From assembly GCA_052143835.1 (NCBI GenBank), contig JBKQRV010000093.1, positions 3,135 through 67,134 of the forward strand: a DNA stretch of 64,000 bases. The letters are read 5' to 3'. The position numbers and the translations under genes are program-made. The DNA is from Alphaproteobacteria bacterium (GTDB taxonomy: Bacteria; Pseudomonadota; Alphaproteobacteria; JACZXZ01). Under the pieces are notes generated by a model that saw only the letters and a program-made list of their open reading frames with translations, did no database searches and was not told the DNA's origin. Shown here in pieces: positions 1 to 64,000 of the stretch (the first letter of the stretch is position 1; every line of letters begins with the position of its first letter).

Positions 1-1675
1 CTTCGCCCGGTTCATTTCCGGAGCGCTCGTCGCGGTGTTTCGCGACGTGCTGCCATTGGGTGGCGACAGCCAGGAGGCACTCGGCCATTTTCTGCTGCTT
101 TGTACATTTGCATTCGGCTGCTCGTGCTATTTTCTCGCTCGCGCCGTCATGCCGGGATACTCGGTGGCGCAACTGTGTTTCGTTGTCGCCTCGACCTTCA
201 GCGGATTTACCCTTAACCTGGTCTACGCCAACAATTTCGATCATCTTCTCGGGATTGCGATAGGCCCGTTCATCGCGGGCATGGCAGTCATCGTGCGATG
301 GCGCGGCCGTGAGGCAATCCTCGTTGGCGCCGCCATGGCGGCGCTTCTTTGCATCTATCCGGAGATGGGGGTCATCCTGGCGCTGCCCACGGCCATTGTC
401 ATGGCTTGGCGCTTGTGGCGCTGCCGCCCGCGCTACCGGAGACTGGCGGCATTCGCGGGCCTTTTGCTTCTCGTCGTCTTCCTGGCAACGCTGCCGTGGC
501 AGAAGGTGTTGTTGCAATACATGGCTATGCAGCTCGAGGCGGGAACGGCGTCCGGCACCCGGCCCGGAGAGGGATATTTCCATACGCTGTTCGATGCGGA
601 ATGCAGCCCCGGCGCGATGTTCGGCCTCTATGCTCCGTTCCAGCCATGCACCCGCCCTCTCATCCTCAATCTGCTCAAGGACGCCGTTGCCGTGATCGGC
701 GCGCTCCTTGTGCTGGCCGGCGCATGGCGGCCTGGGCGCGCCATGGTGGCGCCGTTCGCGCTCTCGGCGCTGATCATAGCGTTGGGCACGGCCCTTATGT
801 TGCTTGAGCAAGAATATGACTACGGCGCCTTCAAGATCCTCGCCTCGGGATGGTATGTTCTGGCGCTGCTCATGGTGGTCGGAGCCGGGTCTCTCGCGGC
901 GCAGGGACCGTACTTTCAGAAAGCGATATCAGCATTGGCGCTTGCCTACGTTGCCGTCATCGGGTTGCGAGTCTGGCAGTTGGCCGGTGACGTCGCGGTT
1001 AAGGATATGGCCTATTTCCGCACGGTCGAGCATTTGGCCGACTTCGACCCTCGCGCCAGGATCGCCGTCCAATTGAGCGACAGTTTGGCGCTCGAGTGGG
1101 CGCTCTATTATCTTCGCGACAGACCGCTGGCGGTGGCGGGATTGAATCATCCCTATCTTTTCGCTCTGGATGAATTCTATGAGAGACAGTTGCAAAGCGG
1201 TCTGGGTGAGGCGGCGTATCTGCTTTCCGACACCCGTTACGACGACTGCTTCGGTCACGCCGTCCGGCAGGGCGGTCCCTATCTCCTCTACAAGCTTCCG
1301 TCAGGCGTGCGCACGATCCTCACCTATATAAGGGGACCGAACGGGAGCACCGAGCAGAGCGGGAGGGTCGCCCTCGCGGCGGGTGATCAAGACACGCGCA
1401 TCTCGATCTTCTCGGTGAGCGAGGGCATCGCGAAACTCTCGGCCGACTTAGCACTCGATCCCGGTGGGTCGGGTTTCGAGAGCCTGCGCCTCCTCATCCG
1501 CTCCAACCTCGAGGACAAAGAGGTCGCGGTTGACCAGGACGGCCATATCGCGGTCGACGTCAAGGTGCCCGCGGGCCGCTCCGAGATCCGCCTGCGCGTG
1601 CTCGACCAGGGTGCCGCGGGCTCGCCGCCTCCGCGGATCGATGCGCGGCAGATCGCGGTCTGCGCGCCGGCATAG
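1..1675 (+). CDS. Polytopic membrane protein, function unknown; 5' end lies upstream of the window
   Basis: The reading frame is open from nt 2 with no upstream stop; the listed ORF 35..1675 starts at an internal GTG. The first ~330 aa are strongly hydrophobic (multi-TM) and are followed by a ~200 aa soluble C-terminal domain. No family motif recognised. Confidence 0.5.
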   Translation, partial: FARFISGALVAVFRDVLPLGGDSQEALGHFLLLCTFAFGCSCYFLARAVMPGYSVAQLCFVVASTFSGFTLNLVYANNFDHLLGIAIGPFIAGMAVIVRWRGREAILVGAAMAALLCIYPEMGVILALPTAIVMAWRLWRCRPRYRRLAAFAGLLLLVVFLATLPWQKVLLQYMAMQLEAGTASGTRPGEGYFHTLFDAECSPGAMFGLYAPFQPCTRPLILNLLKDAVAVIGALLVLAGAWRPGRAMVAPFALSALIIALGTALMLLEQEYDYGAFKILASGWYVLALLMVVGAGSLAAQGPYFQKAISALALAYVAVIGLRVWQLAGDVAVKDMAYFRTVEHLADFDPRARIAVQLSDSLALEWALYYLRDRPLAVAGLNHPYLFALDEFYERQLQSGLGEAAYLLSDTRYDDCFGHAVRQGGPYLLYKLPSGVRTILTYIRGPNGSTEQSGRVALAAGDQDTRISIFSVSEGIAKLSADLALDPGGSGFESLRLLIRSNLEDKEVAVDQDGHIAVDVKVPAGRSEIRLRVLDQGAAGSPPPRIDARQIAVCAPA

Positions 1676-1806
1676 GCAATAAGCCGTTGCGCCGGCCCGC
1701 GCGGTGGGGCAGTAAAGTCGGGTTCGCCGAGAGCTGCGGTGGCGCGGAAGGCACCCCGGCGCCGCGGATCGAGAAGAAGCCCGGGTCCGGGTCGTACAAA
1801 AGGTTC

Positions 1807-2703
1807 ATGTCCGCCATGCTCAATCCTCCCGCGGAAATGCCCTGCCGTATCTGCGGCTCTTCCGCAGGGTTCATCGGCAGCAAGGCGGGAAAATTCGTGA
1901 GGAGCGACTTCAACCTCTACCGCTGCGCCGATTGCGGGCTCGCCTTCGTCGGCAATCCGATCACGGATCACAAGGCGGTCTATTCGGAAGATTTCTATAA
2001 GGGTCGCGGTGCCGACCCGATGGTCGATTACGAATTCGAGCTGTACCACCCGCAGGAGACGGTGCGCATCTACGAATGGCGCGGCATTCTGCGGGTCGTC
2101 ACGGCCTTGAGGGGCGAGACAAAGGGGTGCCGCTGGCTCGATTTCGGCTGCGGCAATGGCGGCCTGGTACGCCACCTCCGCGAAAAGGGTGCGGCCGACG
2201 CTGTCGGGTTCGACGAAGGATGGATTGCGGATCGGGCGCGCGCGCTCGGCATCCCGATACTGCGGTCAGAGGAGCTCGCCTCCCATCGAGGCGCCTTCGA
2301 CGTGGTGACCGCGATGGAGGTGTTCGAGCACTTGCCGGATCCGGTGTCGAGCCTCAGGGACATCCGAGCGCTGATGAGACCGGGGGGCCTGCTGTTCTAT
2401 ACGACGGGCAATGCGCGTCCGCACCGGAACGCGCTCATCGCCTGGCCCTACGTCTTGCCGGAAGTCCACGTCAGCTTCTACGAGCCGAGGACCTTGCATC
2501 GCCTGCTGAGCCGAACGGGCTTTCGTACCGAGCACCGCGGATTCGTCCCCGGCTTCGAGGACATCATACGCTTCAAGGTGCTGAAGAACCTGCGCCTGCG
2601 CACGACCGCGACGTGGGAGAAGGCGATGCCTTGGCCGCTCGTTTCCCGGATCGTGGACGCCAAGTACGGGGTCACCGCGCATCCGGTCGCCTGGGCAGCG
2701 TGA
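1807..2703 (+). CDS. Class I SAM-dependent methyltransferase with N-terminal CxxC..CxxC zinc ribbon
   Basis: CRICGSS..CADCGL zinc ribbon; motif I LDFGCGNGG; FDVVTAMEVFEHLPDP; LMRPGGLL. The ATG at 1807 is in frame with the TTG-initiated track ORF 1687..2703. Confidence 0.75.
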   Translation: MSAMLNPPAEMPCRICGSSAGFIGSKAGKFVRSDFNLYRCADCGLAFVGNPITDHKAVYSEDFYKGRGADPMVDYEFELYHPQETVRIYEWRGILRVVTALRGETKGCRWLDFGCGNGGLVRHLREKGAADAVGFDEGWIADRARALGIPILRSEELASHRGAFDVVTAMEVFEHLPDPVSSLRDIRALMRPGGLLFYTTGNARPHRNALIAWPYVLPEVHVSFYEPRTLHRLLSRTGFRTEHRGFVPGFEDIIRFKVLKNLRLRTTATWEKAMPWPLVSRIVDAKYGVTAHPVAWAA

Positions 2704-2720: not shown

Positions 2721-3476
2721 TCATCGGCCCTGCGCGCGCGAGGCCTCTTTATGGCCGACCAGGATATGCACCTGGACCGGGGTGAGCGCTGACGGCACCG
2801 TGATGCCGTAGAGCACGACTTTGCGGCCCCTCGGCATGTGTTCGACCTCGACCTTCGGCAGGAATTCGGCGACCATGTCGCGCAGATCCTCGACGACATA
2901 CTGGAGCGTCGGCGGGTGCGACGAGATGAGCGGGATGATCCGTACCGCGCTTCGGTAGGCCAGCCGCTCCAGGCGATAGAACCAACGCGGCACGCACGAC
3001 TCCACGAGGATGAAGCGGCCGCCCGGCTTCAGCACGCGGCTCGCCTCTTGAATGGCGCGACGCGCGTTGGCCTTGCAGTCCGCGACGCTGCTGCCGACCA
3101 GATGGTGGATCAGCATCACGATGAGCACGCCGTCGAAAGACGCGTCCGGCTCGGGGATGTCGAGCGCGCTGCCCGTCCTGGCCTGGGCATTGGGCGGCAG
3201 GGTGTTCTTGCAAATCTCCGGCGGCAGCTGGTCGAAGAAGAGATCCAACGCCATGATCTCGCCGACGCGCGTCGCGTCGTAATTGCACACACCTCCGTTT
3301 CCGATGTCGAGCATCCGGCCTATCCCGGCGATCTTCTCGCTTACGTATTTGCGCAACTGGACGTAAGTATCGATGGTCTCGAGGCTCTTCCTGTATTCCG
3401 CGAGGTGGTCCAGGAAGAACTGCCTATTGGTCGCCTGAGCGTCCGCCTGGACGGGGTCGGCAAGGTGGACACTCAC
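2721..3476 (-). CDS. Class I SAM-dependent methyltransferase
   Basis: Motif I MLDIGNGG; VLIVMLIHHL; RVLKPGGRFILVE. Likely GTG start preceded by a GGAGAGG Shine-Dalgarno; the track start is TTG at 3533. There is no internal ATG before motif I. Confidence 0.65.
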   Translation of the reverse strand: MSVHLADPVQADAQATNRQFFLDHLAEYRKSLETIDTYVQLRKYVSEKIAGIGRMLDIGNGGVCNYDATRVGEIMALDLFFDQLPPEICKNTLPPNAQARTGSALDIPEPDASFDGVLIVMLIHHLVGSSVADCKANARRAIQEASRVLKPGGRFILVESCVPRWFYRLERLAYRSAVRIIPLISSHPPTLQYVVEDLRDMVAEFLPKVEVEHMPRGRKVVLYGITVPSALTPVQVHILVGHKEASRAQGR

Positions 3477-3641
3477 GAAGGGCCTCTCCAAGCAATCGCG
3501 GAAACGAGGTGTGCCGCGCCAGAGTTGCGGCAAGCCATCGCAAAGACTTGTTGCAATGGCTTGTTCAAGTCAAGTCAAGACTTACTTCGCTCGAGCTCTC
3601 GCCTGTCCCCGACGGCGCTCGGCCGCGGCGGCGCTTCGAGC

Positions 3642-4664
3642 CTAGGGTCCGTGCGAGCGCGGCGTCTCGCCGGTGCCGGGTCCGGAGCCGGGGCCGCGCC
3701 GGTCGCGCACGCCGACGTTGACGGCGCGCGCGACGACGAACTGCGGGCGCCTGCGCACCTCGTCATAGATGCGCCCGATGTATTCCCCGAGCACGCCGAC
3801 CGCCATGAGCTGCACCCCGCCCATGAAGAGCACGAGGATGATGATCGTCGGCACGCCCATCGGGTAATCCATGCCGAATGCCACCTTGGCGGCGAGGACG
3901 AAGACGATCATCGCTAGGCTGAACAGGAGCACTCCGAAGCCGGTCCACAGCATGAAGGAGAGCGGATATGTCGAGAAACCGAACACGCCGTTGAAGCCGA
4001 TCCTGAGCGAGCCGAGATAGCGGTTGTATTTGCTGATGCCGGCCTCCCGGGCCTCGCGCTCGTATTCGAGGAAGGTCTGGCGGAAGCCGACCAGCGCAAC
4101 GAGGCCTCTGAGAAAGCCGTGGCCCTCGCTGAGCTCGCGCAGCTCCTCGATCACGCGCCGATTTAGGATGCGGAAATCGCCCGTGTTGCGCGGTATCGAG
4201 ACATCGGAGATGCGGTCGATCAGGCGGTAGCCGAATTCGGCGACGAAGCGCTTCATCGCCGTCTCGCCCTTGCGGCTCGCGCGCCGCGCGGTCACCACGT
4301 CGAAGCCTTCCGCGAGCTTGGCGTGCATCTTCTCGATCAGCTCGGGCGGATCCTGGAGGTCGACGTCGATCACCACGCAGCTCTCGCCCCGGCAGTTCAG
4401 GATTCCGGCCATCGTCGCGGCTGGCTGACCGAAGCGCCGGCTGAAGAGGAGAAGCCCGATCCGCGGATCGCGCGCCGCCTCCTCGGCGATGATCGCCTCG
4501 GTGCGGTCGGGACCGGGATCGAGGCAGAAGATGATCTCATAAGACCCGATGCGCTCGAGCACCGGACGCAGGCGGGCGAGAAAGGGGCGGATATTGTCTT
4601 CTTCCCGATAGACCGGAACGACGACCGAAATCCTGGGGATCGCTTCCTCGTCCATGCCCATCAT
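3642..4664 (-). CDS. GT2 polyprenyl-phosphate sugar synthase-like glycosyltransferase (DPM1/ArnC/GtrB-like) with C-terminal TM helices
   Basis: ISVVVPVYREEDNI, DPGPDRT, VIDVDLQDPPE, then two hydrophobic C-terminal helices. Start taken at MMGMDEE; the track ORF extends to 4784. Confidence 0.75.
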   Translation of the reverse strand: MMGMDEEAIPRISVVVPVYREEDNIRPFLARLRPVLERIGSYEIIFCLDPGPDRTEAIIAEEAARDPRIGLLLFSRRFGQPAATMAGILNCRGESCVVIDVDLQDPPELIEKMHAKLAEGFDVVTARRASRKGETAMKRFVAEFGYRLIDRISDVSIPRNTGDFRILNRRVIEELRELSEGHGFLRGLVALVGFRQTFLEYEREAREAGISKYNRYLGSLRIGFNGVFGFSTYPLSFMLWTGFGVLLFSLAMIVFVLAAKVAFGMDYPMGVPTIIILVLFMGGVQLMAVGVLGEYIGRIYDEVRRRPQFVVARAVNVGVRDRRGPGSGPGTGETPRSHGP

Positions 4665-4933
4665 CGCTTTTGGGACAACCTTGATGTCGAACAGCGGAAT
4701 GACGAATGGAATGTTAGCACATCGGGTTTCGCGCGACGGTCGCGGCAATGAGCGCGGCTCTTTACACACAATCCGCAGGGGCAAGTCAAGCGATCAGCCC
4801 GAAGCGCATGCGCGGCCGCCAAGAAGACGGGCAGGCCAAGGACTCCGGGCTGGACTTTCATGGGCGAGGACTCTAAGCATTCGGCACCGGATGCCCCGCG
4901 CATCGTGGTCCGAGGGCCGCTTGGTATGCCGAG

Positions 4934-5845
4934 ATGACGAAGTTCGCCTTTGACTTTCCGAGGCCTCGAGAGGCCGCGGCGGCGCCGGTGTGGCAGGGCG
5001 ATGCGTTTTGCGTCGGAGACGAGAAGCGGCGCATCGTCGCCTACGACGTCGGCGCCTCGGGGTGGACCGACGAGCTCACGCATCTCCATGAGGAGAAGGA
5101 CGCGGAGACGCATTTCATCAGCGTGGCGTCCCGCAACTGCGCGCTCGGCGCGATCAGGCGGCTCAACACCGCCAAGAGGCCGGTCATTCTCGAGATCGGC
5201 TGCGCGTCGGGCTATTTCCTGCGCGATCTCGTGGCCGCGTTTCCGGACGCCGATATCATCGGCGCCGATTATACGCTCGCGACGCTCGAGGCGGTCGCGG
5301 ATCGCGTTCGCGGCATCCCGCTTCTTCGCTTCGACCTCACGCAATGCCCGCTCCCCGACGCGTCGGTGGACGTCGTTGTCACGCTCAATGTGCTGGAGCA
5401 CATCGAGAGGGACGACTTGGCACTCCAGCACATCTATCGCATCCTGAAGCCGGGCGGCCTGATGATCGCCGAAGTGCCCGCCGACCCGGGGCTTTACGAC
5501 AGCTACGACAAGCTCCTCATGCATTATCGCCGCTACGACATGAAAGAGCTCGAGCGCCTGACGCTCGCCGCGGGCTTCGCCACGCTCGAGAAGTCGCATC
5601 TCGGCTTTTTGCTCTATCCGGCGTTCTGGCTGACGAAGAAGCTTTCCCGCTTGTCCCGGCGTACGCCGGGGCCGGGGAGCGATGCGGACGTCCGCGCGAG
5701 GGTCGAGCGCTCGATCGCGACGACGCGCCGGTGGAACCGTCTCGTCTACCGCCTCATGGATTTCGAGGGCTGGCTGCGCCACCGCGTCTATTTGCCGGTC
5801 GGGATTCGCTGCCTCATCAACTGCCGCAAGCCGGTGCTTAAGTGA
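4934..5845 (+). CDS. Class I SAM-dependent methyltransferase
   Basis: Motif I ILEIGCASGY; VDVVVTLNVLEHIERD; ILKPGGLMIAE. ATG start. Confidence 0.7.
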   Translation: MTKFAFDFPRPREAAAAPVWQGDAFCVGDEKRRIVAYDVGASGWTDELTHLHEEKDAETHFISVASRNCALGAIRRLNTAKRPVILEIGCASGYFLRDLVAAFPDADIIGADYTLATLEAVADRVRGIPLLRFDLTQCPLPDASVDVVVTLNVLEHIERDDLALQHIYRILKPGGLMIAEVPADPGLYDSYDKLLMHYRRYDMKELERLTLAAGFATLEKSHLGFLLYPAFWLTKKLSRLSRRTPGPGSDADVRARVERSIATTRRWNRLVYRLMDFEGWLRHRVYLPVGIRCLINCRKPVLK

Positions 5846-6072
5846 GAGCGGCGGTTTCGCGGCATTCGCAGCACCGTCGGGCCTGAGAGGGACGCGCGGC
5901 AATTGGGACCGGCCGAGCTCGTCGCGGCGAGGCGAGATGGGACGCGAAGGGCGCGGCATTGTAACTTGACCCGCGGGCCTCGGCGAGTTAACAGCCAGAC
6001 GGCGCTTGGTGGCGGACGCGCGCGCGAGTGCGCGCCGGACGCCGCGGAAGCAGCAAGGGAAATCGAACGACG

Positions 6073-7056
6073 ATGTCGAGTGCCGCCCCTCGCTCCGCCC
6101 ACGTGAAGAGATGGCTCGCGCTTTTCGGCAAGGGGGCGGTCTCCGCCTTCCTGCTCTGGCTCATGCTCCGGCATCTCGATTGGGCCGACGTCATCGCGCG
6201 CCTCCATAGTATTTCTCCGTTCTCGCTCCTCGGCGCGCTCCTGCTCACCTATGTCGGCACGTCGCTCTCGGCGGCGAGGTGGTGGCTCATTCTATCGGCG
6301 GTCAATTATCGGCTGCCGATCACCGATTTGCTGCGCTACGTCTTCGTGGGTTTCTTCTTCAACCAAGCATTGCCCTCGACCGTCGGGGGCGATGCCATGC
6401 GCATTGTCCTCGGCACGCGCGCCGGCCTGCCGGTGGACGTGGCCTTCCGCTCGGTGTTCGCGGAGCGGCTGATCGGCCTCTTCGTGCTGTTGCTGTTGAG
6501 CCTCGCCGGCCTGCCCAAGATCATGCGGTACTTCGACATGGACTATCATGCCTGGCTGTTGGCCGGCGTGGTCGTGGGCGGGCTCGTCGGCATGATCGCC
6601 GGCTGGTTTCTCATCAACGTCAGCGGCTGGCTCAGGCGTTTTCGCCTCGGCCGTCTCGTGCACAACGTCGCGCGCGACGTCCTGGCCGTCCTCATGCATC
6701 GCCACTATTTCATCCTGATCGCGGTGATCTCGCTCATCGGCCAAGTGTTGGGGTGCCTCGCGATCTGGGCCATCGCCCGCGGCCTGGGGACCGGCCTCGA
6801 CCCGATTCATACGCTGCTCGTGGTGCCCATCGTCCTCGTGCTCCTCATGGTGCCCATCTCCATCGCGGGCTGGGGGCTGCGCGAGTCGATGCTGCTCGTA
6901 GGCCTCGGCATCGTCGGCGTGAGCCCAGGGGATGCGGTTTTGACCTCGCTGCTTTATGGCCTCGTCAATCTGTTCGGAAGCCTCATCGGCGGGGTGTTGT
7001 GGCTGTTGGGCGGCAGCCGCCGCGGCGCGCTTAAGACGGAGGCGAAGCCCCTTTAA
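6073..7056 (+). CDS. Flippase-like integral membrane protein (LPG-synthase-TM / UPF0104-type domain)
   Basis: About 8 predicted TM segments; conserved-looking FFFNQALPSTVGGDAMR loop. These proteins typically accompany GT2 polyprenyl-P-sugar synthases. The ATG at 6073 is in frame with the track ORF start at 6028. Confidence 0.55.
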   Translation: MSSAAPRSAHVKRWLALFGKGAVSAFLLWLMLRHLDWADVIARLHSISPFSLLGALLLTYVGTSLSAARWWLILSAVNYRLPITDLLRYVFVGFFFNQALPSTVGGDAMRIVLGTRAGLPVDVAFRSVFAERLIGLFVLLLLSLAGLPKIMRYFDMDYHAWLLAGVVVGGLVGMIAGWFLINVSGWLRRFRLGRLVHNVARDVLAVLMHRHYFILIAVISLIGQVLGCLAIWAIARGLGTGLDPIHTLLVVPIVLVLLMVPISIAGWGLRESMLLVGLGIVGVSPGDAVLTSLLYGLVNLFGSLIGGVLWLLGGSRRGALKTEAKPL

Positions 7057-7345: not shown

Positions 7346-8683
7346 GTGAAGAGTTGGCTTAAGGACCGTGCGCGCGGTTTGGTCGGCTATTACGACCTTC
7401 GCCAAGCTTTGGCGCGCATCGAGGACACCCTGAGTGTGGTCCTTTGGCGACAGGCGGATATTCTGGAAACGGACCGCGTTAACCTCTCTCGTTTGGAAGT
7501 CGCTGACTCGGCAAAATCCCGAATGAAAGGATCAAACTATTCATTCGCCAAGCGAGAGGTCTTGCGCCGACGCGCAATGGAATCGCAGCGGAGCGTACTC
7601 AGCCGGCTCGTCTGCGCGGCCTGTCTCGGCAACTTGGAACGACCGAGCGAAGGCGCCGAGCTGGCTTGCGCCAAATGCGGCGGGCGCTACGAGATTCGCG
7701 ACGATGTCCCGATCATGTTGGTCATGGACCCCAATTGGGCCAAGAAACGGGATGAGATCGTCGGCGAAGTCGCCTACAACGCGCGCACGGCACCTCCACA
7801 CGTGCATGAGCAGCGCAACAGCTTCATGAACGAGAGCAGCCGCTCTCTGCTGAAATCGCTGAACATCGAGCTATCCCAGGACGACGTCCTCATCGTCGGC
7901 TGCTCCATGGCGGAAGCGGAATGCTTTGAGCCCCTCGCGCGCTCGTCGGTAGCGCTCGACATCGTCCCCGAGCTCACGTTGGCCTACCAGAAACACAGCG
8001 CAGGGGAAGGGCGGAACGTCGCGTGGATCTGCGGGGACGGCGAATGCTTGCCTTTCGCTGCCGGGACGTTCGATACCGTGATCGTGCGCCAGGCGCTGCA
8101 CCACATGCTGAAGTATTATTCCGCTATCAGCGAGTTCTTCCGCGTTTGCCGCGTCGGCGGACGCGTCATCATCATCGAGGAGCCATACAGCAAACCGGAC
8201 CTGGCCGACGCGGCTCTGCTCGAATTGCCCGATGATTTTCCGCTCTACGGAACAATCCGCCTCGGAGATCTGCGTCGGCGGCTCGGCGTGCCAAGCGTGG
8301 CGTCCACCGGCACCAGCGGCCGCGAGCTGATCGACTTCAGCCGATTGGAGGCGATAAAAGCGTATATTCCCGCGATCGCTGGCGATAACGAAAGCCTGCT
8401 CGCCGACAAGTACCACGCCTTCGCGACGATCAATTTGATTCTCTCGCTTCGCCTTCACACCGACGAGTTCGATCTGCTTTGGCCGGACAGGGTCGGTTGG
8501 GTGGACCACTCGGGTGAGGAGATCGCCTTCTGCACCGGCGCCAATCCGGCCGTGACTCAGCCCTTGATCGAGCGCCTGGCCGCCGCGAGCACGCTTTCGG
8601 TCATTGCCCGCAAATCACGCAAGACGACCGTTCTGCGCATCCGCGACGACCTCAAAGCCTCGCCAATGCAAGCGGTGTCGTGA
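7346..8683 (+). CDS. Trm112-like zinc-ribbon domain fused to a class I SAM methyltransferase
   Basis: CAACLG..CAKCGGRYEIRDDVPIML (Trm112-like); LPFAAGTFDTVIVRQALHHM; VGGRVIIIEEP. GTG start with a GGGAG Shine-Dalgarno 8 nt upstream. Confidence 0.6.
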   Translation: MKSWLKDRARGLVGYYDLRQALARIEDTLSVVLWRQADILETDRVNLSRLEVADSAKSRMKGSNYSFAKREVLRRRAMESQRSVLSRLVCAACLGNLERPSEGAELACAKCGGRYEIRDDVPIMLVMDPNWAKKRDEIVGEVAYNARTAPPHVHEQRNSFMNESSRSLLKSLNIELSQDDVLIVGCSMAEAECFEPLARSSVALDIVPELTLAYQKHSAGEGRNVAWICGDGECLPFAAGTFDTVIVRQALHHMLKYYSAISEFFRVCRVGGRVIIIEEPYSKPDLADAALLELPDDFPLYGTIRLGDLRRRLGVPSVASTGTSGRELIDFSRLEAIKAYIPAIAGDNESLLADKYHAFATINLILSLRLHTDEFDLLWPDRVGWVDHSGEEIAFCTGANPAVTQPLIERLAAASTLSVIARKSRKTTVLRIRDDLKASPMQAVS

Positions 8684-16462: not shown

Positions 16463-16484
16463 AAGGAGCGGGCCGGATTTGAGG

Positions 16485-17645: not shown

Positions 17646-17790
17646 GCCGGGTCTGCGAGAACGTGCGCAACAGGCGGCAACCAGCGGAAGCCGAGGCCGG
17701 CCCTCGCGCGAGCGGAGAATTGCGGCGGGGCCGCGCGCGCGGCCGGCGGCCGGCGTCTCGACGAGGCACCTTGGTCGACAGGCATCGCCC

Positions 17791-43859: not shown

Positions 43860-44063
43860 GGTCGGCACAGTACACATGACGCGCAAGGGCGCCCCGCGCT
43901 GGCTGATCGTTGCCGCATCCAATCGTTCACCGCGATCCGACGGGCAGCTTCCTGGAGCTGTTATATGGCAAGGTCTTTCTATTGTACGTCGTGCGCCCCA
44001 TCTGCGATGGGATTGTTCGTGGCAGCAAGAGGCAATCGAGTTTTCTCACGGTCTGCTCGTGTT

Positions 44064-45311: not shown

Positions 45312-45313
45312 GA

Positions 45314-56477: not shown

Positions 56478-56984
56478 CTAGCCCGTATCCGCGTAATTGG
56501 CAAGCCAACGAAGCATGCGGATCGCACCCCCGACAAGCTCGCCTCTGCCGGTCAGGCGGTAGCGCCCATCATCGAGGCAAAGAAGACCCAAGGCGCTCAG
56601 CGACCGCAGCCGTTCCGTCTTCTTGGCCTCGCCGGTTCGGGCGAATTCGTCCACGAGCGTGTCAGGGGTCGCGCTGCCGCGGCGCCTGACTTCGGCAAGG
56701 ATGGCAATCGAGTAGCTGATCTGCGACAGGGACCAAAGCTCCAGGAACGTGATGCTGTAAAGGCCGTGCAGCATGACGAGGCCCAGACCCGCGACGAGCA
56801 GCCGGTAACTCCCGGCGAGCACGCCGGGCAGCAGGACGGCCGCCGAATAGAGGCAGCTCGATATCGCATGATAGGCGAAGATAGTTGCTTCCCGTCTGAA
56901 GCCGGCAAGGTGCCGCAACAAGGCGAGATACAGCGCCAGATGAAGCACGAGATAAGCGACCGCGACGAGATAAAGCTCAACCAT
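56478..56984 (-). CDS. Small membrane-anchored protein with C-terminal winged-helix-like domain, paralog 2
   Basis: MVELYLVAVAYLVL.. (3 TM), then a soluble C-terminus ..RLRSLSALGLLCLDDGRYRLTGRGELV. The SD AGGAGAG lies 7 nt upstream of the ATG at 56984. Confidence 0.45.
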   Translation of the reverse strand: MVELYLVAVAYLVLHLALYLALLRHLAGFRREATIFAYHAISSCLYSAAVLLPGVLAGSYRLLVAGLGLVMLHGLYSITFLELWSLSQISYSIAILAEVRRRGSATPDTLVDEFARTGEAKKTERLRSLSALGLLCLDDGRYRLTGRGELVGGAIRMLRWLANYADTG

Positions 56985-57555: not shown

Positions 57556-58566
57556 ATGAGTGATCTTGGAAGCCGCCGCGAGAGGGACGTTCGGCCGCCG
57601 GGCGGCCTAGCGACGGCCGGTCGTGGACGCACGCGGACGCCCACCCCCGCATCGGACACGCCAAGATGCAGCGTCTGCGGCTGCAGCGAGCGCGTGCCCG
57701 TGTTCCATGCCCGCGATTACGAGCACGGCGTGCCTGGCGAATGGCTGGTCGTTCGCTGTCCCCGATGCAATCTCATGTTCCTCTCGCCGATGCCGGCGGA
57801 CGAGGAGCTGGCTTCATTTTACCCTTCGAATTACTCGGCCTATCAAAGCGGTTCGCCGTTGGCCTGGTTGTTTCGTAGCGTCTATCGACTCGACGCGCGG
57901 CGCATTCGGCGGCTCATCGGCGAGCGCGGCCGCATTCTCGACGTCGGCTGCGGCAACGGCGATGCGCTTCTCCAGATCGGGCCGTACGGAAAGTGGGACC
58001 TCTGCGGCGTCGAGCTGAACGGTGCGGCGGTCGAGAAGGCCAGGAGTGCCGGTGTTTCGGTCCAGCAAGGTGACCTCGCCAGCTGCAATTTTCCGGATGC
58101 GAGCATGCGGCTCATCCGCATGGGGCACGTCATCGAGCACGTGCCCCGGCCGGCCGACACCTTGCGGCGTGCCTATGCGTTGCTGGAGCCGGGGGGCGTG
58201 CTCTATGGCGAGACGCCGAGCACGGATTGCCTCGATTTTCGTTTGTTCGGCAAATACTGGGGGGCTCTCCACGTCCCGCGCCACCTTTTTTTCTTCGACG
58301 GGCGCAATCTGAGGCGCGCGTTGGAGCAGGCCGGCTTCGTCGACGTGTCGATCGCGCCGCGGCTGAGGACGGTCGGTTGGTCGTGCGGCGTGCAAAATTA
58401 CCTGGCCGACCGCGCCGGCCTGCGCATACCGGAAGCGGGCCGCGTGCGCTGGTATCTACTTCTCATCATTTGTTTTCTTCCGCTCACGCTCCTGCAGTCG
58501 CTATCCGGCAAGACGGCGACCGTCGCGTTCACGGCGCGCAAACCCGGCGGCGTGGGCCGTCGATGA
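57556..58566 (+). CDS. Zinc-ribbon + class I SAM methyltransferase
   Basis: CSVCGCSE..CPRCNLMF; ILDVGCGNGD; IRMGHVIEHVPRP; LEPGGVLY. Confidence 0.7.
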   Translation: MSDLGSRRERDVRPPGGLATAGRGRTRTPTPASDTPRCSVCGCSERVPVFHARDYEHGVPGEWLVVRCPRCNLMFLSPMPADEELASFYPSNYSAYQSGSPLAWLFRSVYRLDARRIRRLIGERGRILDVGCGNGDALLQIGPYGKWDLCGVELNGAAVEKARSAGVSVQQGDLASCNFPDASMRLIRMGHVIEHVPRPADTLRRAYALLEPGGVLYGETPSTDCLDFRLFGKYWGALHVPRHLFFFDGRNLRRALEQAGFVDVSIAPRLRTVGWSCGVQNYLADRAGLRIPEAGRVRWYLLLIICFLPLTLLQSLSGKTATVAFTARKPGGVGRR

Positions 58567-60857
58567 TGCTCGACTCCAGACGGCTCATGCTGGCCGTCGC
58601 GTTTGCCTGGGCGGCGCTCCACCTCGCCTTCCTCGGACAATTCATCTATCACGACAGCTGGAAGCACAACTTTCCCATGCTCTACGACCTCGCGCAGCAG
58701 AGCAGCTGCCGCGGCCTACCGTCTTGGCTCTGGACTCCCGATAGCGGCACGCCGACGCTTATCTACGTCATCAGCACGAGCTTGACGCAGATTCTGCGCG
58801 CGCCGGCGCTTTATCTTCTGGGCTGCGTGCATCCCGGTCTCGTCGCCAGCGTTTATTACCACAAGGCGGTTACCTATCTCGGCTACTTCGGCTTGGCGCT
58901 CGGCATGTACGTGCTCGGCAGGCTGCTGCTCCAGCACCGCATGTCGGCGGTCTATCTGTTCGCCGCGACCCTCTTCGCCGGGCTTTGTCTCCAGGCGGCT
59001 CATTCCGACCAGGTCGTCACCATCACTTTCTGGTTTCCTTGGACGGCTGCCTGCGGCGTGCTCTACCACCGCCATTACGACTCCTTGAGCGGAAGTCGCT
59101 ATCTCAATCTCGCCGTTCTTTTCGTCTGCCTGCAGTCGTTCGACCAATATCCCCACTTCCAGGTCATTGCCGTCGGAGCCGCGGCCGCGATTTACGCGCT
59201 CTTCGAGCGGCGGCGCGCGCTCGCGGCCCTTCGCATGCACTGGCGGCGGCTTTGGCCTTCGGCGCTCGTGCTCGGCTTGACGATCTCGCATTTCCTGATC
59301 TTACGCGGCGCCGTGAGCGGCTACGCGCCGTCCCTGCGCACCGCCCTCGTCGTCGACCCCACCCTTTTCAGCGAAAGCGGTTTCGTGCAGCCAACAGCCT
59401 TGATCGGCAGCATCCTGCCGACCAGTCTGCTTGCCGGTTTCGAGGCGCTTAAAAGCGACATGGAAAACTTCTTTGAGTATTTGCGGGTGGCCCCGCATAC
59501 GGCTTGGTCAATCTTCCGCCTCGACGAGCTCGCCTTCTATGTCGGCGTCGTGCCACTCGTGCTTGCTGCCGTCTTCCTGTTGCGCCCGGGCATGGCGAGA
59601 TTGAGGCTCGGCTGGGTCATTTGGATCACCGTGATCTTTGCCGTGTCGCTGGAGCAGACGCGACTGTATCTCTTCTTGTTCCACTACGTCCCCTTCTTCG
59701 ATCTGTTCCGCTCGTACTTCCTGTTCATTCTGTTCGTGATGCTGGGCGTCCTCGTGATCAGCGCTTACGGCTTCGACGCGGTCCTGACCCTGCCCGACGT
59801 TGCGCGCCGCGCGGTGCTGCGGCGCGCCGGCCTCGCCCTTTTCATCATGGTTCTCGGGGCGGTCATCGCGCTCCTGTCGATGGCTGCTTTCGATCCGAAT
59901 CCCTTGCATCTGTTATTGACCCTCAAGGGGCCGCTTCTCAGGGACCTTCTCATCACTGCAGCCGCATACCCGGCGCTCCTTTACGCGGCATGGCCGAACG
60001 TTCTGCCTGAGCGCCGGGGCCTTGCCTTGATCGCGGTCATGGTGCTTTCGCAGGTGATTTACACGGCGGGCACCTATTCTCAGGTCGCGATCGCGCAGCC
60101 GCGGCTTTTCGCCGAATTCGGGCTCGAGCGCTCCGAGTTGGAGCCCTTCGATGCCGCGATCCGCGGCGACCCCAATGCGGTCCAAAGAAAGCTCTGCGCG
60201 CAATTCGCCGAGTGTTACCTCTCGCGCCGGCCGTCGGTGTCGCTCCGTCGCGACCTCGAGGGCACGTTCTTGCGGTCGCGGCGCGGGGCCGTGTTCGTTC
60301 GGCACCTCAGCCTGCCCGTCGCCGAGGCCCTGCTGGGGTTGACGATGCCGGTATTCTGGACCAGCCGTCACCTCGAGGAAATCGATTCGGATGACTCCCT
60401 CGTTGAGCGCCTAAATGCCCACGATACGGACATCGCGCTCTTTCTTCGCGAGGTCGCCTATGTCAAGAAGCGCGCCTTCGAAAAGCTCGCGGCCGGCCAG
60501 GATGCGGGCGGGGAATGGGCGGATCACGTCGAGCTGCGCAAGCTGGAGTGGGGCCGGGATGTCGTCCGGCTTTCATACAATGCCGATAAGCCGGTGCTCT
60601 TGAATGCCTCGATCACCTGCACGTCCGAGTGGACGGCCAGCGTTGACGGCAAGGAGATTCCGCTCGTTTGCGCCAACGTCGATGGACTCTTGCTGCGGCT
60701 GCCGCCAGGTGCAGGGACCGTCACGCTCCACTATCGAGACCGCTGGAGCGATTTCGTATTCGACACGCGGTATGTGCTTTTGGCAATCGCCCTCTTCGGC
60801 ATCATACGGTTGGCGGGAGCGGCTCTGCGGCGGCGTTCGGCCGCTTTGCGCCCCTGA
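58563..60857 (+). CDS. YfhO-like large membrane protein (putative GT-C-type glycosyltransferase), paralog 2
   Basis: Colinear with 25795..28209 (HSDQ(V/T)V.I.FW.PW, RKLC..FA.CYLS.R, terminal TM YVLLAIALFGIIRL). The ATG overlaps the upstream stop (ATGA). Confidence 0.5.
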   Translation: MMLDSRRLMLAVAFAWAALHLAFLGQFIYHDSWKHNFPMLYDLAQQSSCRGLPSWLWTPDSGTPTLIYVISTSLTQILRAPALYLLGCVHPGLVASVYYHKAVTYLGYFGLALGMYVLGRLLLQHRMSAVYLFAATLFAGLCLQAAHSDQVVTITFWFPWTAACGVLYHRHYDSLSGSRYLNLAVLFVCLQSFDQYPHFQVIAVGAAAAIYALFERRRALAALRMHWRRLWPSALVLGLTISHFLILRGAVSGYAPSLRTALVVDPTLFSESGFVQPTALIGSILPTSLLAGFEALKSDMENFFEYLRVAPHTAWSIFRLDELAFYVGVVPLVLAAVFLLRPGMARLRLGWVIWITVIFAVSLEQTRLYLFLFHYVPFFDLFRSYFLFILFVMLGVLVISAYGFDAVLTLPDVARRAVLRRAGLALFIMVLGAVIALLSMAAFDPNPLHLLLTLKGPLLRDLLITAAAYPALLYAAWPNVLPERRGLALIAVMVLSQVIYTAGTYSQVAIAQPRLFAEFGLERSELEPFDAAIRGDPNAVQRKLCAQFAECYLSRRPSVSLRRDLEGTFLRSRRGAVFVRHLSLPVAEALLGLTMPVFWTSRHLEEIDSDDSLVERLNAHDTDIALFLREVAYVKKRAFEKLAAGQDAGGEWADHVELRKLEWGRDVVRLSYNADKPVLLNASITCTSEWTASVDGKEIPLVCANVDGLLLRLPPGAGTVTLHYRDRWSDFVFDTRYVLLAIALFGIIRLAGAALRRRSAALRP

Positions 60858-61034
60858 GTCTGGTTCCAGCGGCACCCCTGCCCGCCTTAATCGCCAAGGG
60901 GCAGGCGCCGGCACGGCAAACGGTTTTGCAAATTTTGCGGTTTGCGTTGACATCGATTGGCCAAAGACAGAAAACTCTAGGGCTTCCTCTGAGGCTTCTT
61001 GCGCGGTAATCGGGGGAACGCTCGAAGGTCGGAC

Positions 61035-61916
61035 ATGGAAACACGGGCAAACGTGGTGGCACAGGCCGGTTACGGGTCTCCGCACAACGTGCACGCCGAG
61101 GTTTTAGCCTGCCCGCGCTGTCATGCCGGCTCGCTGCGCATGGCAGGAGACAAGTTCCGCTGCCCCCAGTGCGGCTTCGAGGGCGGCTACAGGAACGACG
61201 TCTATCTTGTCATGGACGACAGGAGCAAATCCTATTTCGACGAACTGCATGGGACGATGACCGCGCAGAACGCTAAGGAAGGCGTCAACGAGGTGTTCTA
61301 CGCCAAGCAGTTCGCCTACATCGAGGAAATCCTTCAACCGGGAATGACGATCGTCGATATCGGATGCGGCCCTTCCGTCGGCTACCGGCGTCCGCCGGGG
61401 AGCCTCCTGATCGGGGTCGATCCCTCCTACGAATCGATCGCCGTGAACCGTAGCGTCGATCTTCGTATTTTCGGCGGCGCCCAAGCCCTGCCGATCGCCA
61501 CCGCTTCGGTCGACGTCGTCGTCTGTTTTTATTCGATCCATCACATGATCGGCTCGTCGATCTCGGAAACCCGCGACAACGTCTCCGCCGCCTTTAGGGA
61601 GTTCAAGCGCATCGTCAAACCCGGCGGCAAGATCGTGATCTTCGAAGTGAACCCGTATTGGTTGTTCTGGGCCGCCGAGCAGCTATTTTGGGGCTTGACG
61701 CGCCGCTTGTTCGGCAAGGCCATCGATTTTTACTTCTGGTCGCGGCACGGATTGAAACAGCTCGGACGCCAATATCTTGGAAGCGCGGAGCTGGAAACCG
61801 AGCACTATCGCGCCCCGTGGCGGACGACCTTTCCGCCGGCATTCTCCATCCAGTGGCTTCGCATGCCGTTTCTCCTCTATCCCTTCCATGTCGCGCGCTA
61901 CAGCTGGACCCTTTGA
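61035..61916 (+). CDS. Trm112-like zinc-ribbon + class I SAM methyltransferase
   Basis: CPRCHAGS..CPQCGFEGGYRNDVYLVM; IVDIGCGPS; VDVVVCFYSIHHM; VKPGGKIVIFE. Start taken at METRANV; track TTG at 60999. Confidence 0.65.
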   Translation: METRANVVAQAGYGSPHNVHAEVLACPRCHAGSLRMAGDKFRCPQCGFEGGYRNDVYLVMDDRSKSYFDELHGTMTAQNAKEGVNEVFYAKQFAYIEEILQPGMTIVDIGCGPSVGYRRPPGSLLIGVDPSYESIAVNRSVDLRIFGGAQALPIATASVDVVVCFYSIHHMIGSSISETRDNVSAAFREFKRIVKPGGKIVIFEVNPYWLFWAAEQLFWGLTRRLFGKAIDFYFWSRHGLKQLGRQYLGSAELETEHYRAPWRTTFPPAFSIQWLRMPFLLYPFHVARYSWTL

Positions 61917-62135
61917 TGCCGGCCCGATGAGGCCAATGCGTAGCGAGGCTCATGGTTGGAGCCCTAGCTTGAAATCGCGCGACACCCTCGGTAAGGAGAG
62001 TGGAGAATCGGAGTGCAGTGCGCCGGCTGCTGCGGGCAAATGGGGGGTGATCGCCTCTAGCGGTCGCGCGCGCCGCGGTCTCGACAGCGCCCGCGTCCTC
62101 AGGCGACGAGCGAATAGAGCCATCTCTTGGTGCCC

Positions 62136-64000
62136 ATGTCGTTTCCTGGCTCTGCCCCGGCAATGCAAAGGATCATGAAAGCGTTCGGCGCGGCGGAGTT
62201 GCCGGGCTCGAGCCGGGTCACGGCCGCTGCCGAGAAGCTCGCCTGCTTGCTTTGGCCCGTGTGGGCGTCCGTCGCGGCCTGGGCGGACCGGGCCGGCAGC
62301 TGGGTAAACGACGACAGACGTTCCCTCTTCGGGATGCTGACCGCGATCGCGGCGGTCTTCTCCATCGATGCGGCGCTCGAGATCTTCGGCGATCCGTCGG
62401 TTTTGCTCATAGTCATCGCGTGCCCGTTCGTGGCTCTCTTGCTGCTGCGGGTCGACATGGCGCTGCCGTCGAAAAGCGGCGTCTCAGGCGAGAGATTGGG
62501 TGCGCTTGCCGCCTTTCTCTTCATGCTGGGGCTATGGAGAATCGTCGCCACGCTGTGGTCTCGCGCCGGAGGCTTTTTCGGCATCCGGGAGACCGGCGAA
62601 TCTGCTTCGATATTTCTTTCGAGCTACCAAGTCAGGGACCTGACATCCTTCTTTCTGCAAGAGGTCGCCGCGAGCTCGGATCCGGCCGCCTTGGGCTTTT
62701 ACTACATTCACCATCCCAATTTCATCTCGCGGCTGTTCACCATGGCCGGCATCGCGCTCGGCATGACGCAGGAGCGCATCATTCTCGCCTGTTTCATGGT
62801 TTCCATGGTCGCGCTGTTTTTGGGGTTCCTGGCGCTGCGGCGGCTTTTCGGCCCCGGGCTGGCGGTAGCCGCAATCGGGTTCTTCGGAACCTCCTATGGC
62901 ATCTTCGTTCGTCAGGGCGGCGATCTCTTGCGCGGCTTTCACATGGCGATGTTTTGGATCCTGGTTTACCTGACCGCCCTGCAAAAAGACGCGCCGGCGC
63001 GGGGGGCCGTCGGCGTGAACATGGCGCTTGCGGTCCTCTTCGTCCTCATTGCCTCCTCGGATTGGGCGTTTCTCGTTTTCTGTTTGGCGTTCTACGTCAT
63101 GTGGCACATCTACGCCTCTCGCGGATTCGCGTTCCGCCACCTGTTCTCGTGGGTTTTCCTGCCGGTGGCGCTGACCTTCACGGCCTATTTCAGCGCTGTC
63201 GTCGCGCATACGGGGTTGCGCTTTTTCGCCCTCGATACGTTGGTCAGCTATTTTGGCCGCATGGGCAACGTGCTTTCGGGACCGCTTCTCAGGCAGGTTT
63301 GGGACCCCGAGAAATTCCGGCAGCTGTACCAGTCAAAGCACATCGTCATGTGGGATGCCAACGCCGTTCCCGCCGGCACGCACCAGGCCATCGGCGCCTA
63401 TTGGCGAGCCATGACTGCGGGCGGTTTCCTGCTCGCGGGTCTCTTGGTGATCGCCTTCATCGGTTGTTGCACGGCCATGGTGCTCCGCATTTCGACGGAC
63501 CGGCTCGCCCGTGGCGCCATATTGGCGCTCTGGGCAGCGATATGCCTGGGAGTGGCGCCCTTCGGATGGGTGATCGTTTTGATCGGCTGTCTCATCCTTG
63601 CTCTGCCCAGATTGCGCTTGGGGCCCATTGATGCGGCGGCCGAGCCGGCCGGGCGAGACCGGCTTCTTCGCGATCTCGCGGCTTGGATCACGATTTGCCT
63701 GAGCGCCGTGGCAATCACCGCAATAGCGTTTCCCAATTACGTCTTTTGGCTTTGGGACCGCGGCGTCTCGCCCGTAGGTCTTGCCGATTCGCTCGCCTTT
63801 GCGTTGATCTGCCATCTTCTCGTCTGCGGCGCTCGACCAGAGGTATGGCGGCGTGCGCTCCGGCTGGAACCTCAGCTTGCACTATCGTCCTTCGCCGGAG
63901 GGGCGGGCGGGGAGGGCCAAGCGAGCCGGCAGGGCGAGCTCGCGTCTCTACGACCTCCCGAGGAGCGGGCTGCTCTCGGCAATACCCTCTGGCGAGGTGC
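62136..64000 (+). CDS. Polytopic membrane protein, function unknown; 3' end beyond window (not in ORF track because it has no in-window stop)
   Basis: The frame is open from the TAG at 62115 to nt 64000. ATGs at 62136, 62163 and 62175. At least 12 hydrophobic segments. The competing listed ORF 62252..63631 is an Arg-rich off-frame artefact. Confidence 0.5.
   Translation, partial: MSFPGSAPAMQRIMKAFGAAELPGSSRVTAAAEKLACLLWPVWASVAAWADRAGSWVNDDRRSLFGMLTAIAAVFSIDAALEIFGDPSVLLIVIACPFVALLLLRVDMALPSKSGVSGERLGALAAFLFMLGLWRIVATLWSRAGGFFGIRETGESASIFLSSYQVRDLTSFFLQEVAASSDPAALGFYYIHHPNFISRLFTMAGIALGMTQERIILACFMVSMVALFLGFLALRRLFGPGLAVAAIGFFGTSYGIFVRQGGDLLRGFHMAMFWILVYLTALQKDAPARGAVGVNMALAVLFVLIASSDWAFLVFCLAFYVMWHIYASRGFAFRHLFSWVFLPVALTFTAYFSAVVAHTGLRFFALDTLVSYFGRMGNVLSGPLLRQVWDPEKFRQLYQSKHIVMWDANAVPAGTHQAIGAYWRAMTAGGFLLAGLLVIAFIGCCTAMVLRISTDRLARGAILALWAAICLGVAPFGWVIVLIGCLILALPRLRLGPIDAAAEPAGRDRLLRDLAAWITICLSAVAITAIAFPNYVFWLWDRGVSPVGLADSLAFALICHLLVCGARPEVWRRALRLEPQLALSSFAGGAGGEGQASRQGELASLRPPEERAALGNTLWRG

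Follow-up and report, generated by a model that had tools for sequence, protein, structure and literature searches.

Three-component glycosylation systems, in which a synthase-type glycosyltransferase of family 2 (GT2), a flippase-like protein and a glycosyltransferase of fold class C (GT-C) form one module, are established (PMC11127046, PMC8035078, PMC5836110). They include GtrA/GtrB/GtrC, ArnC/ArnT/ArnEF, CsbB/GtcA/YfhO and the GT136 pentofuranose system, with one GT-C enzyme per module and a single side-chain sugar. Here we analysed a 64,000-nucleotide stretch of DNA (the window; contig JBKQRV010000093.1, positions 3,135 to 67,134), which makes up the middle two-thirds of a locus spanning at least 98 kilobases (kb) in an uncultured soil-type alphaproteobacterium. 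The window encodes 13 large membrane proteins without a Pfam or NCBIfam family, eight of which are GT-C enzymes by predicted fold. We propose, with a probability of roughly 65%, that the locus encodes a multi-module system for extracytoplasmic glycosylation, with polyprenyl-phosphate-sugars as donors; the identity of the donors, their flipping, the topology of catalysis and the acceptor are inferred.

The locus resembles the three-component systems in having synthase-type GT2 enzymes, a flippase-like protein and predicted GT-C enzymes of two families, A and B (PMC11127046, PMC8035078), and in a relative (contig L013) flippase-like, family B and GT2 genes likewise form a compact operon. It differs in scale and in parts: 13 GT-C-like proteins are encoded in the window and about 20 overall, from at least 5 families; the one recognisable flippase-like gene belongs to the MprF type rather than to GtrA, MATE or SMR; and several GT2 enzymes are fused to methyltransferases, unlike those of the known systems. 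The three-component logic itself is known, and what is new here are the GT-C families, their concentration, the atypical flippase candidate and the methyltransferase-fused donor synthases. We know of no proteobacterium described with such a number of GT-C-like genes in one locus, and literature searches, which were not aimed at such a locus, found no proteobacterial locus of this kind.

Many paralogous GT-C enzymes with C-terminal extracytoplasmic domains also assemble mycobacterial arabinogalactan and lipoarabinomannan (LAM) (EmbA/B/C, AftA–D, PimE and MptA–C, with Ppm1 and decaprenylphosphoryl-arabinose (DPA) donors), using polyprenyl-phosphate-sugars as proposed for the locus. There is no relationship at the sequence level (no membership of Arabinose_trans or DUF3367), the locus has neither a UbiA-type decaprenylphosphoryl-5-phosphoribose (DPPR) synthase nor a DprE epimerase (DprE1/E2), and its proteobacterial host has an outer membrane. 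In mycobacteria the genes are scattered, whereas those of the locus form one cluster. Elongation of N-glycans in the endoplasmic reticulum (ER) by ALG3, ALG9, ALG12 and ALG6/8/10, with dolichyl-phosphate (Dol-P)-Man and Dol-P-Glc, is eukaryotic, is encoded by unclustered genes and acts on a dolichyl-diphosphate (Dol-PP)-oligosaccharide first made in the cytoplasm.

The window has a G+C content of about 63% and many shadow open reading frames (ORFs); genes were therefore called on third-position GC bias (GC3), which gives 43 genes rather than the approximately 45 of an earlier reading of this DNA (the original prediction), with the inventory itself upheld. All 43 were scanned against Pfam, with NCBIfam added. 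The 13 family-less membrane proteins are 495 to at least 839 amino acids (aa) in length and have 7–11 predicted transmembrane (TM) helices. All-versus-all BLASTP and hhalign sort them, exactly as predicted, into family A (six members), family B (two), a YfhO-like pair and three singletons (g01, g19 and g43):

g01, 2..1675, plus strand: large membrane protein, 5′-truncated by the window edge; singleton
g17, 19414..21165, plus strand: family A; 59% identical to the modelled g21
g18, 21313..22938, plus strand: family B; 57% identical to the modelled g22
g19, 23073..25592, minus strand: family C membrane protein, 839 aa, 11 TM helices
g20, 25795..28209, plus strand: YfhO-like, 804 aa; large loop before the final C-terminal TM helix
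g21, 28369..30015, plus strand: family A, modelled member
g22, 30012..31673, plus strand: family B, modelled member
g23, 31693..34059, plus strand: long family A member; N-terminal g39-like module and extra C-terminal domain of about 250 aa
g28, 40598..42253, minus strand: family A; 41% identical to g33, E 8e-108
g33, 48038..49525, plus strand: family A
g34, 49647..51227, minus strand: family A; 31% identical to g17 and g21, E ~1e-55
g41, 58563..60857, plus strand: YfhO-like family
g43, 62127..64000, plus strand: family D membrane protein, 3′-truncated by the window edge; full length 770 aa (taken from contig L003)

With E-values from 1e-54 down to 0, the paralogy of the membrane families is not due to chance. 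The BLASTP match of g34 to g21 has an E-value of 6e-56, g20 and g41 are 40% identical (E 8e-160), and g20 is 58% identical to d46, a YfhO-like protein encoded downstream of the window; g23 matches the family A profile with 97% probability (hhalign). Among all family pairs, hhalign linked only g19 with the downstream protein g44, g23 with family A, and family D with family E. Comparisons of family A with family B, and with a bona fide PMT_2 protein from a related contig (L002), were blank, and such negatives carry no weight because the second of these, a control, was blank too. The soluble domain that had been ascribed to every one of these proteins is small in family A, at about 80–100 aa; g01 has 8 predicted TM helices and then a soluble C terminus of about 230 aa.

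Families A and B each yielded an AlphaFold2 model, built from alignments of the window paralogues and database homologues (g21 for A: pLDDT 78, pTM 0.83; g22 for B: pLDDT 82, pTM 0.86). Both match GT-C glycosyltransferases almost exclusively, namely PMT, ArnT, ALG3/9/12, Aft, Emb and PglB/STT3. The family A model aligns over 250–377 residues per structural match; for family B, Foldseek placed ArnT first, with a TM score of 0.5 over the full length and a probability of 1.0, and transporters at about 0.1. In both models a multi-TM core with an N-terminal GT-C module (TM1, a long first extracytoplasmic loop and juxtamembrane helices) can be superimposed on solved GT-C enzymes. By predicted fold, the 8 members of families A and B among the 13 membrane proteins are thus GT-C enzymes, and to this extent the earlier picture of many paralogous GT-C-type enzymes acting on lipid-linked donors stands. 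The closest structural neighbours mostly use polyprenyl-monophosphate-monosaccharide donors, the type of product made by GT2 enzymes of the class of g04 and g35 (below), and this agreement supports the proposed use of polyprenyl-phosphate-sugars.

The original prediction had staked itself on families A and B not resembling Wzy, WaaL or transporter families, and the models bear no such resemblance. Structures of WaaL, Wzy, SEDS proteins and flippases are missing from the top matches of both models and no transporter rises above background; we therefore rejected the assignment of A and B to Wzy, WaaL, SEDS proteins or transporters. The kinship with known GT-C enzymes is one of predicted fold alone, as sequence membership fails for GT39, GT83, YfhO, Emb and Aft. 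Identity within the structural alignments is 8–13%. None of the 13 proteins matched the PMT_2/ArnT-like families of GT39 and GT83 (PF13231/PF02366, GT-C_A) at a Pfam E-value of ≤0.01, nor in Pfam or NCBIfam at E = 10 where tried; NCBIfam scans of the 13 gave only noise, and g01, g19, g20, g41, g43 and g23 had no Pfam match to these families at E ≤ 10.

Conserved residues of family A are R96, K176, D224–E225 and Y404–Y405 (g21 numbering; 112 distant relatives); judged from the model helices and the positive-inside rule, the invariant ones would lie at periplasmic helix ends. Family B has an invariant Asp, D72, in its first loop. Among 54 distant relatives of family A, the core is still family-less and no PMT_2/ArnT-like match was found; 9 of the 54 carry C-terminal F5/8-type-C domains and 1 carries a carbohydrate-binding module (CBM), as expected of enzymes that act on extracellular glycans.

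For families C and D, the YfhO-like proteins and g01 we infer a GT-C fold. Comparison of g19, g20, g43, g44 and a family C alignment with all PDB sequences (single-sequence and profile searches) gave nothing meaningful. YfhO (PF09586), a predicted GT-C enzyme of lipoteichoic and wall teichoic acid (LTA/WTA) glycosylation in Firmicutes, has many TM helices, a big loop between the last two and a final TM helix (PMC5836110). The proteins g20, g41 and d46, from Gram-negative Alphaproteobacteria, share this plan: the last TM helix is predicted from hydropathy at about residue 730–760, after a hydrophilic stretch of about 250 aa. The label ‘YfhO-like’ holds for this architecture and falls short of the gathering threshold. 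It rests on sub-threshold matches to the last ~70 model positions: g41 matches PF09586 with its C terminus only (20.7 bits against a gathering threshold of 28.5), g20 has no Pfam match of its own, and relatives score 12–26.9 bits, always in the same register, over model positions ~755–826 of 835, with the YfhO transmembrane core unmatched.

Each of these families has an invariant motif after TM1: I-x-HD-x-W-x-x-NFP in the YfhO-like proteins, SFPxxGED (directly after TM1) in family C, and TGES and MDxxE in families D/E. These acidic motifs sit where GT-C enzymes have theirs, which is suggestive and not proof. Family C consists mostly of proteins of 1,220 aa with a repeated C-terminal module; g19 is a short member (839 aa) that matches g44 with an hhalign probability of 100%. 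Families D and E match each other at 77%, and g43 is 54% identical to the C-terminal half of the downstream protein d47. Some or all of families C and D, the YfhO-like proteins and g01 could instead be polymerases, ligases, flippases or exporters that replace Wzx/Wzy/Wza, which would fit both their lack of significant profile matches and the lack of recognisable export genes in the locus. We consider this improbable, given the same-register YfhO matches with the shared big-loop architecture (PMC5836110), the invariant acidic motifs of C, D/E and the YfhO-like proteins right after TM1, as in GT-C enzymes, and large C-terminal extracytoplasmic domains like those of AftD and Emb.

Two further features of these proteins were recorded. 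In d47 (L007 1–3257; 1,582 aa), the 54% identity to g43 spans the C-terminal 730 aa, and the N-terminal half matches nothing in the locus. A module of about 140 aa occurs at the C terminus of both family C and family E proteins, and family E has it twice (L003 17011–20658; L007 3316–6984 and 10001–13669; L009 4207–7761). It matches Pfam DUF7024 below threshold (E 4e-4 to 3e-3), has the recurrent motif LVVLP..S.CW and may bind carbohydrate.

The other 30 genes of the window include those that could make, load, flip and modify the sugars:

g02, 1687..2703, plus strand: Zn-ribbon and class I S-adenosylmethionine (SAM) methyltransferase; Methyltransf_23, E 1.7e-27; paralogous to g29 and g40
g03, 2721..3533, minus strand: methyltransferase; Methyltransf_11, E 5e-13
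g04, 3642..4784, minus strand: GT2 with two C-terminal TM helices; Glycos_transf_2, E 1.7e-24
g05, 4934..5845, plus strand: methyltransferase; Methyltransf_11/25/12
g06, 6028..7056, plus strand: MprF-type flippase-like membrane protein; PF03706 (LPG_synthase_TM), E 2.9e-47
g07, 7346..8683, plus strand: methyltransferase; Methyltransf_11, E 3e-13
g08, 8817..9686, minus strand: soluble GT2; Glycos_transf_2, E 9e-13
g09, 9964..10944, plus strand: thiamine diphosphate (ThDP)-dependent E1 alpha subunit; E1_dh, E 1.6e-68
g10, 10958..12040, plus strand: E1 beta subunit; Transket_pyr and Transketolase_C; start adopted from the gene call on contig L001
g11, 12089..13198, plus strand: sugar aminotransferase; DegT_DnrJ_EryC1, E 1e-105; best NCBIfam match PseC-like
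g12, 13195..14307, plus strand: second sugar aminotransferase; DegT_DnrJ_EryC1, E 3e-103; 40% identical to g11
g13, 14312..14968, plus strand: PIG-L family de-N-acetylase; PF02585, E 1.9e-14
g14, 15011..16462, plus strand: MBOAT membrane O-acyltransferase; PF03062, E 2.6e-22
g15, 16479..17645, plus strand: N-terminally anchored protein; possible SGNH-type MBOAT partner
g16, 17629..19035, plus strand: paralogue of g15, 51% identical
g24, 34222..35259, plus strand: membrane di-iron desaturase/hydroxylase-like; FA_desaturase, E 2e-24
g25, 35650..37056, minus strand: acyltransferase-3; PF01757, E 1.2e-28
g26, 37313..38722, plus strand: N-terminally anchored protein, family-less
g27, 38844..40319, plus strand: methyltransferase–GT2 fusion; Methyltransf_31 and Glycos_transf_2
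g29, 42699..43859, plus strand: Zn-ribbon methyltransferase; Methyltransf_23, E 5e-33
g30, 43965..45311, plus strand: sugar C-methyltransferase; Methyltransf_13 and Methyltransf_14, E 7e-46
g31, 45314..46273, plus strand: GDP-mannose 4,6-dehydratase-like short-chain dehydrogenase/reductase; GDP_Man_Dehyd, E 8e-62; Gmd 3.5e-52, below cutoff
g32, 46273..47805, plus strand: GT2–methyltransferase fusion; Glycos_transf_2 and Methyltransf_11
g35, 51645..52970, plus strand: GT2 with C-terminal multi-TM region; Glycos_transf_2
g36, 53043..53723, minus strand: methyltransferase, 226-aa gene call; Methyltransf_11, E 4e-17
g37, 54495..55808, plus strand: acyltransferase-3; PF01757, E 3e-25
g38, 55876..56352, minus strand: small protein with three TM helices; no family
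g39, 56478..56984, minus strand: small protein with three TM helices, possible winged-helix tail; HVO_A0261_N sub-threshold, 0.003
g40, 57556..58566, plus strand: Zn-ribbon methyltransferase; Methyltransf_23, E 1e-27
g42, 60999..61916, plus strand: methyltransferase; Methyltransf_11, E 2e-12

Profile scans thus recovered the inventory of the original prediction: five GT2 enzymes (g04, g08, g27, g32 and g35), 11 methyltransferase domains (g02, g03, g05, g07, the N-terminal part of g27, g29, g30, the C-terminal part of g32, g36, g40 and g42), one flippase-like protein (g06; PF03706 and TIGR00374), one MBOAT (g14), two acyltransferase-3 proteins (g25 and g37) and a set of sugar-nucleotide tailoring enzymes (E1 alpha/beta, two DegT aminotransferases, the PIG-L deacetylase, the C-methyltransferase and the Gmd-like dehydratase). 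The name ‘AlgJ-like’ for g15 and g16 had to be given up: neither has a Pfam or NCBIfam match, and SGNH-like motifs (GNSE and a C-terminal DxxH) are seen only by eye. Nor did g26 match any Pfam or NCBIfam profile, with GGS and C-terminal DCCH motifs by eye. The MBOAT protein g14 aligns over its full length with DltB (2.7e-51, below the cutoff). A g24-type desaturase recurs with 38–82% identity in related loci (window 34222–35259; L002 16857–17894; L013 4030–5076; L018 22575–23612), and the best, weak, NCBIfam match of g24 is the hydroxylase GntB.

In g04 and g35, the GT2 domain matches characterised polyprenyl-phosphate glycosyl synthases from end to end and is followed by C-terminal TM helices. 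NCBIfam matches of g04 are PgfS (2e-67, model positions 2–304 of 308) and ArnC (3e-43, 3–313 of 316); those of g35, which has a multi-TM tail, are AglJ (3.5e-33), Dol-P-hexose transferase (7e-22) and PpgS (2e-11), and GT2_TM_C is on record for an identical protein. By these matches, both are homologues of polyprenyl-phosphate-sugar synthases; all scores lie below the equivalog cutoffs, so the assignment is to the enzyme type and not to a particular sugar. The GT2 part of g27 resembles AglJ, Dol-P-hexose transferase and ArnC, and that of g32 resembles PpgS and AglJ.

PgfS, the closest match of g04, belongs to a protein-glycosylation system of Streptococcus mutans, and in a related organism from the same sample a bona fide PMT_2 gene (PF13231; L002 7192–8850) takes the place of the MBOAT gene and g15/g16. 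Both observations would fit PMT-like GT-C enzymes that O-glycosylate secreted or surface proteins (S-layer, pili or lipoproteins). We regard this as highly improbable, as neither a candidate target protein nor a MIR domain nor an S-layer gene occurs in the locus, and as the heavy methylation, the acylation and the CBMs of distant relatives fit a polysaccharide acceptor better. The same related contig, L002, has g23, the long family A gene, twice in tandem.

The flippase-like domain of g06 scores 59 bits against TIGR00374 (cutoff 43.2). Glycolipid synthesis in Clostridioides difficile involves an MprF-like flippase that works together with a deacetylase and a glycosyltransferase (PMC10128005). 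Two small proteins, g38 and g39, which share no detectable similarity, are candidates for a partner or flippase role, judged from gene neighbourhood: all lineages examined, one of them at about 35% identity, have the pair immediately next to a YfhO-like gene (window 55876–57122; L008 1873–2986; L013 8270–9237; L015 3421–4439; L017 696–1603). The N terminus of g23 (about 160 residues, window 31693–32180) resembles g39, with 29% identity over 154 aa and a pairwise E-value of 1e-7, possibly a Rosetta-stone link between the small membrane proteins and the GT-C enzymes.

Gene order is kept in related contigs (L001, L002, L008 and L010–L012), and parts of the gene set recur in distant lineages. At 34–47% identity, L013 carries a tight minus-strand operon of a flippase-like gene (PF03706), a family B gene and a g08-type GT2 gene; beside it are a YfhO-like gene, then g39- and g38-like genes, and also a desaturase-like gene. 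At about 40% identity, L018/L019 encode a g08-like GT2, two small proteins, family E, two family C proteins, a YfhO-like protein, family D, a desaturase-like protein and Zn-ribbon methyltransferases. Because of this co-occurrence, we conclude that the components form a conserved kit and are not a chance neighbourhood. The kit (C, D/E, YfhO-like, GT2, desaturase-like and Zn-ribbon methyltransferases) recurs at 30–48% identity near heptose-nucleotide genes in L018/L019 and in the P0200 context. There it adjoins GmhA/HldE/GmhB-type genes, a transaldolase and a B12-radical-SAM enzyme (L018/L019 15–3858), which hints at modified heptoses among the sugars; the window itself has only the Gmd-like dehydratase and the C-methyltransferase. 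A further relative of family C is flanked by sugar epimerase genes and an MBOAT gene.

A word-indexed search of 5.8 billion proteins returned only 11 clusters for family A, 16 for family B and 24 for family C, all unnamed and from alphaproteobacterial metagenome-assembled genomes (MAGs) or metagenomes. An exhaustive profile search of 1.84 billion representative proteins found 490 family A representatives (clusters at 50% identity), 185 of them at E ≤ 1e-30. Family A occurs in one GTDB species representative, at one locus, and a scan of JGI metagenomes gave eight loci.

The gene content, the paralogous families, the GT-C fold predicted for A and B, the homology of the GT2 enzymes to polyprenyl-phosphate-sugar synthases and the co-occurrence across lineages lead us to propose the following scheme. 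In the cytoplasm, the E1 alpha/beta pair, the two DegT aminotransferases, the PIG-L deacetylase, the C-methyltransferase and the Gmd-like dehydratase would produce unusual amino, branched and methylated sugar nucleotides. GT2 enzymes of the ArnC/GtrB/Dol-P-hexose-synthase type (g04 and g35, and probably also g27, g32 and g08) would load these sugars onto polyprenyl phosphate, and the lipid-linked sugars would reach the periplasmic leaflet through the MprF-type g06, possibly with g38/g39. The GT-C transferases, by predicted fold families A and B and putatively also C, D, the YfhO-like proteins and g01, would then extend an envelope glycan sugar by sugar. The MBOAT protein with its SGNH-like partners and the acyltransferase-3 proteins would O-acylate this glycan, and the methyltransferases would supply methylated sugars. 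The acceptor would be made elsewhere and is most likely lipopolysaccharide (LPS) or another lipid-anchored glycan. Because assembly would take place outside the cytoplasm on such an acceptor, no Wzx/Wzy/ABC set would be needed in the locus.

No such set was found. Profiles for Wzx, Wzy, WaaL, Wzz, Wza, ABC transporters and priming phosphoglycosyl transferases matched none of the 43 window genes, in agreement with the original prediction. That prediction had placed the cluster at window positions 1–64000 and had left room for a standard export set just outside it. The locus in fact continues for at least 33 kb downstream, and these 33 kb hold no export or polymerase gene, which answers the second point for this stretch of the downstream side. 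Downstream of the window, in order:

rest of g43, then g44: family C, 1,219 aa
d45: family E, 1,184 aa
d46: YfhO-like, 779 aa
d47: 1,582 aa; C-terminal half is family D
d48: family C
a GT2 gene and an epimerase gene
d51: family C
d52: family B
a methyltransferase gene, then GT4, GT2 and GT4 genes, where the contig ends

The locus as a whole thus encodes about 20 large family-less membrane proteins: six of family A, three of B, four of C, three YfhO-like, two of D, one of E, and g01.

A narrower role is that these genes only decorate, as Gtr/Arn-like side-chain modules acting on O-antigen, core, lipid A or a capsule; a conventional Wzx/Wzy or ABC pathway encoded outside the window would then synthesise and export the backbone. 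The three-component logic (GT2, flippase-like protein and GT-C) is present, the window has no priming enzyme, Leloir-type GT4, GT2 and GT4 genes close the downstream end, the DNA read does not cover the upstream flank, and the known proteobacterial GT-C systems (Gtr, ArnT and GT136) are all decorations (PMC11127046). About 20 GT-C-like genes from at least 5 families in one locus is far above any described decoration system, the paralogue series (six of A, four of C) look like successive elongation or branching steps, and neither wzx, wzy nor an ABC gene lies within 33 kb downstream; on balance we hold decoration alone to be unlikely.

Several further points weigh against the proposed polyprenyl-phosphate-dependent system. 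The GT4, GT2 and GT4 genes at the far downstream end are of the cytoplasmic Leloir type and could start a conventional lipid-linked backbone, and a flank of about 44 kb of the 142-kb NCBI contig, beyond the DNA read, may hold a conventional backbone and export pathway. Most GT-C enzymes have their catalytic Asp or Glu in the first loop; the first loop of family A has no invariant acidic residue, and the invariant pair D224–E225 lies in a later loop, which is atypical. Five of the 13 membrane proteins (g01, g19, g20, g41 and g43) are putative GT-C enzymes, outside the two families with a predicted fold. No GtrA, MATE or ArnE/F-type flippase was detected in the locus, and the flippase type of g06 is known for aminoacyl-phospholipids and a glycolipid, not for polyprenyl-phosphate-sugars (PMC10128005). 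The organism is known only from metagenomes, and the mechanism is read from sequence and models. The probability that is left beside the general mechanism falls in roughly equal shares on a locus that builds most of a glycan and on one that decorates a conventional backbone.

A bolder version, which we regard as doubtful, is that a whole methylated and acylated heteroglycan is built on the periplasmic face by about 20 GT-C enzymes of at least 5 families new to Pfam, NCBIfam and presumably CAZy, and that the MprF-type protein, possibly with g38/g39, is a new kind of lipid-sugar flippase. If true, the locus would be a Gram-negative equivalent of the assembly of arabinogalactan/LAM in mycobacteria or of N-glycan elongation in the ER lumen.

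The window is 99.99% identical to the ENA contig ERZ25039587:contig_77105 and to Logan contigs of SRR31840434; in NCBI its proteins are hypothetical proteins of the MAG ‘Alphaproteobacteria bacterium’ (ACLQME_ locus tags, 142-kb contig). We rejected the possibility that the ORFs are artefacts, as independent assemblies from ENA, NCBI, Logan and JGI contain the same genes, 99.99% identical, and reading frames are kept in orthologues at 34–95% identity. The family B gene g18 (21313–22938) is intact in the window (541 aa); only a 223-aa product is called in the ENA contig (L001 12065–13403; 99.99% identical), probably owing to a single-base assembly indel. L003 differs in length by 1 base from window positions 47556–64000. 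The window has no tRNA and no Rfam family. Between g36 and g37, 770 bp (53724–54494) hold no convincing gene and no Rfam match; the sole ORF there has 82 codons and moderate GC3.

Sequence searches find GT-C enzymes poorly, and every newly described family, such as GT136 in 2024, has given access to a class of glycan modifications. Neither family A nor family B is represented in Pfam or NCBIfam, and both have a predicted GT-C fold; three or four more candidate families lie in the same locus, which also offers candidates for lipid-sugar flippases, methylated and branched sugar donors and new CAZy families. If the proposed system is real, large-scale periplasmic glycan construction would not be confined to Actinobacteria and eukaryotes.

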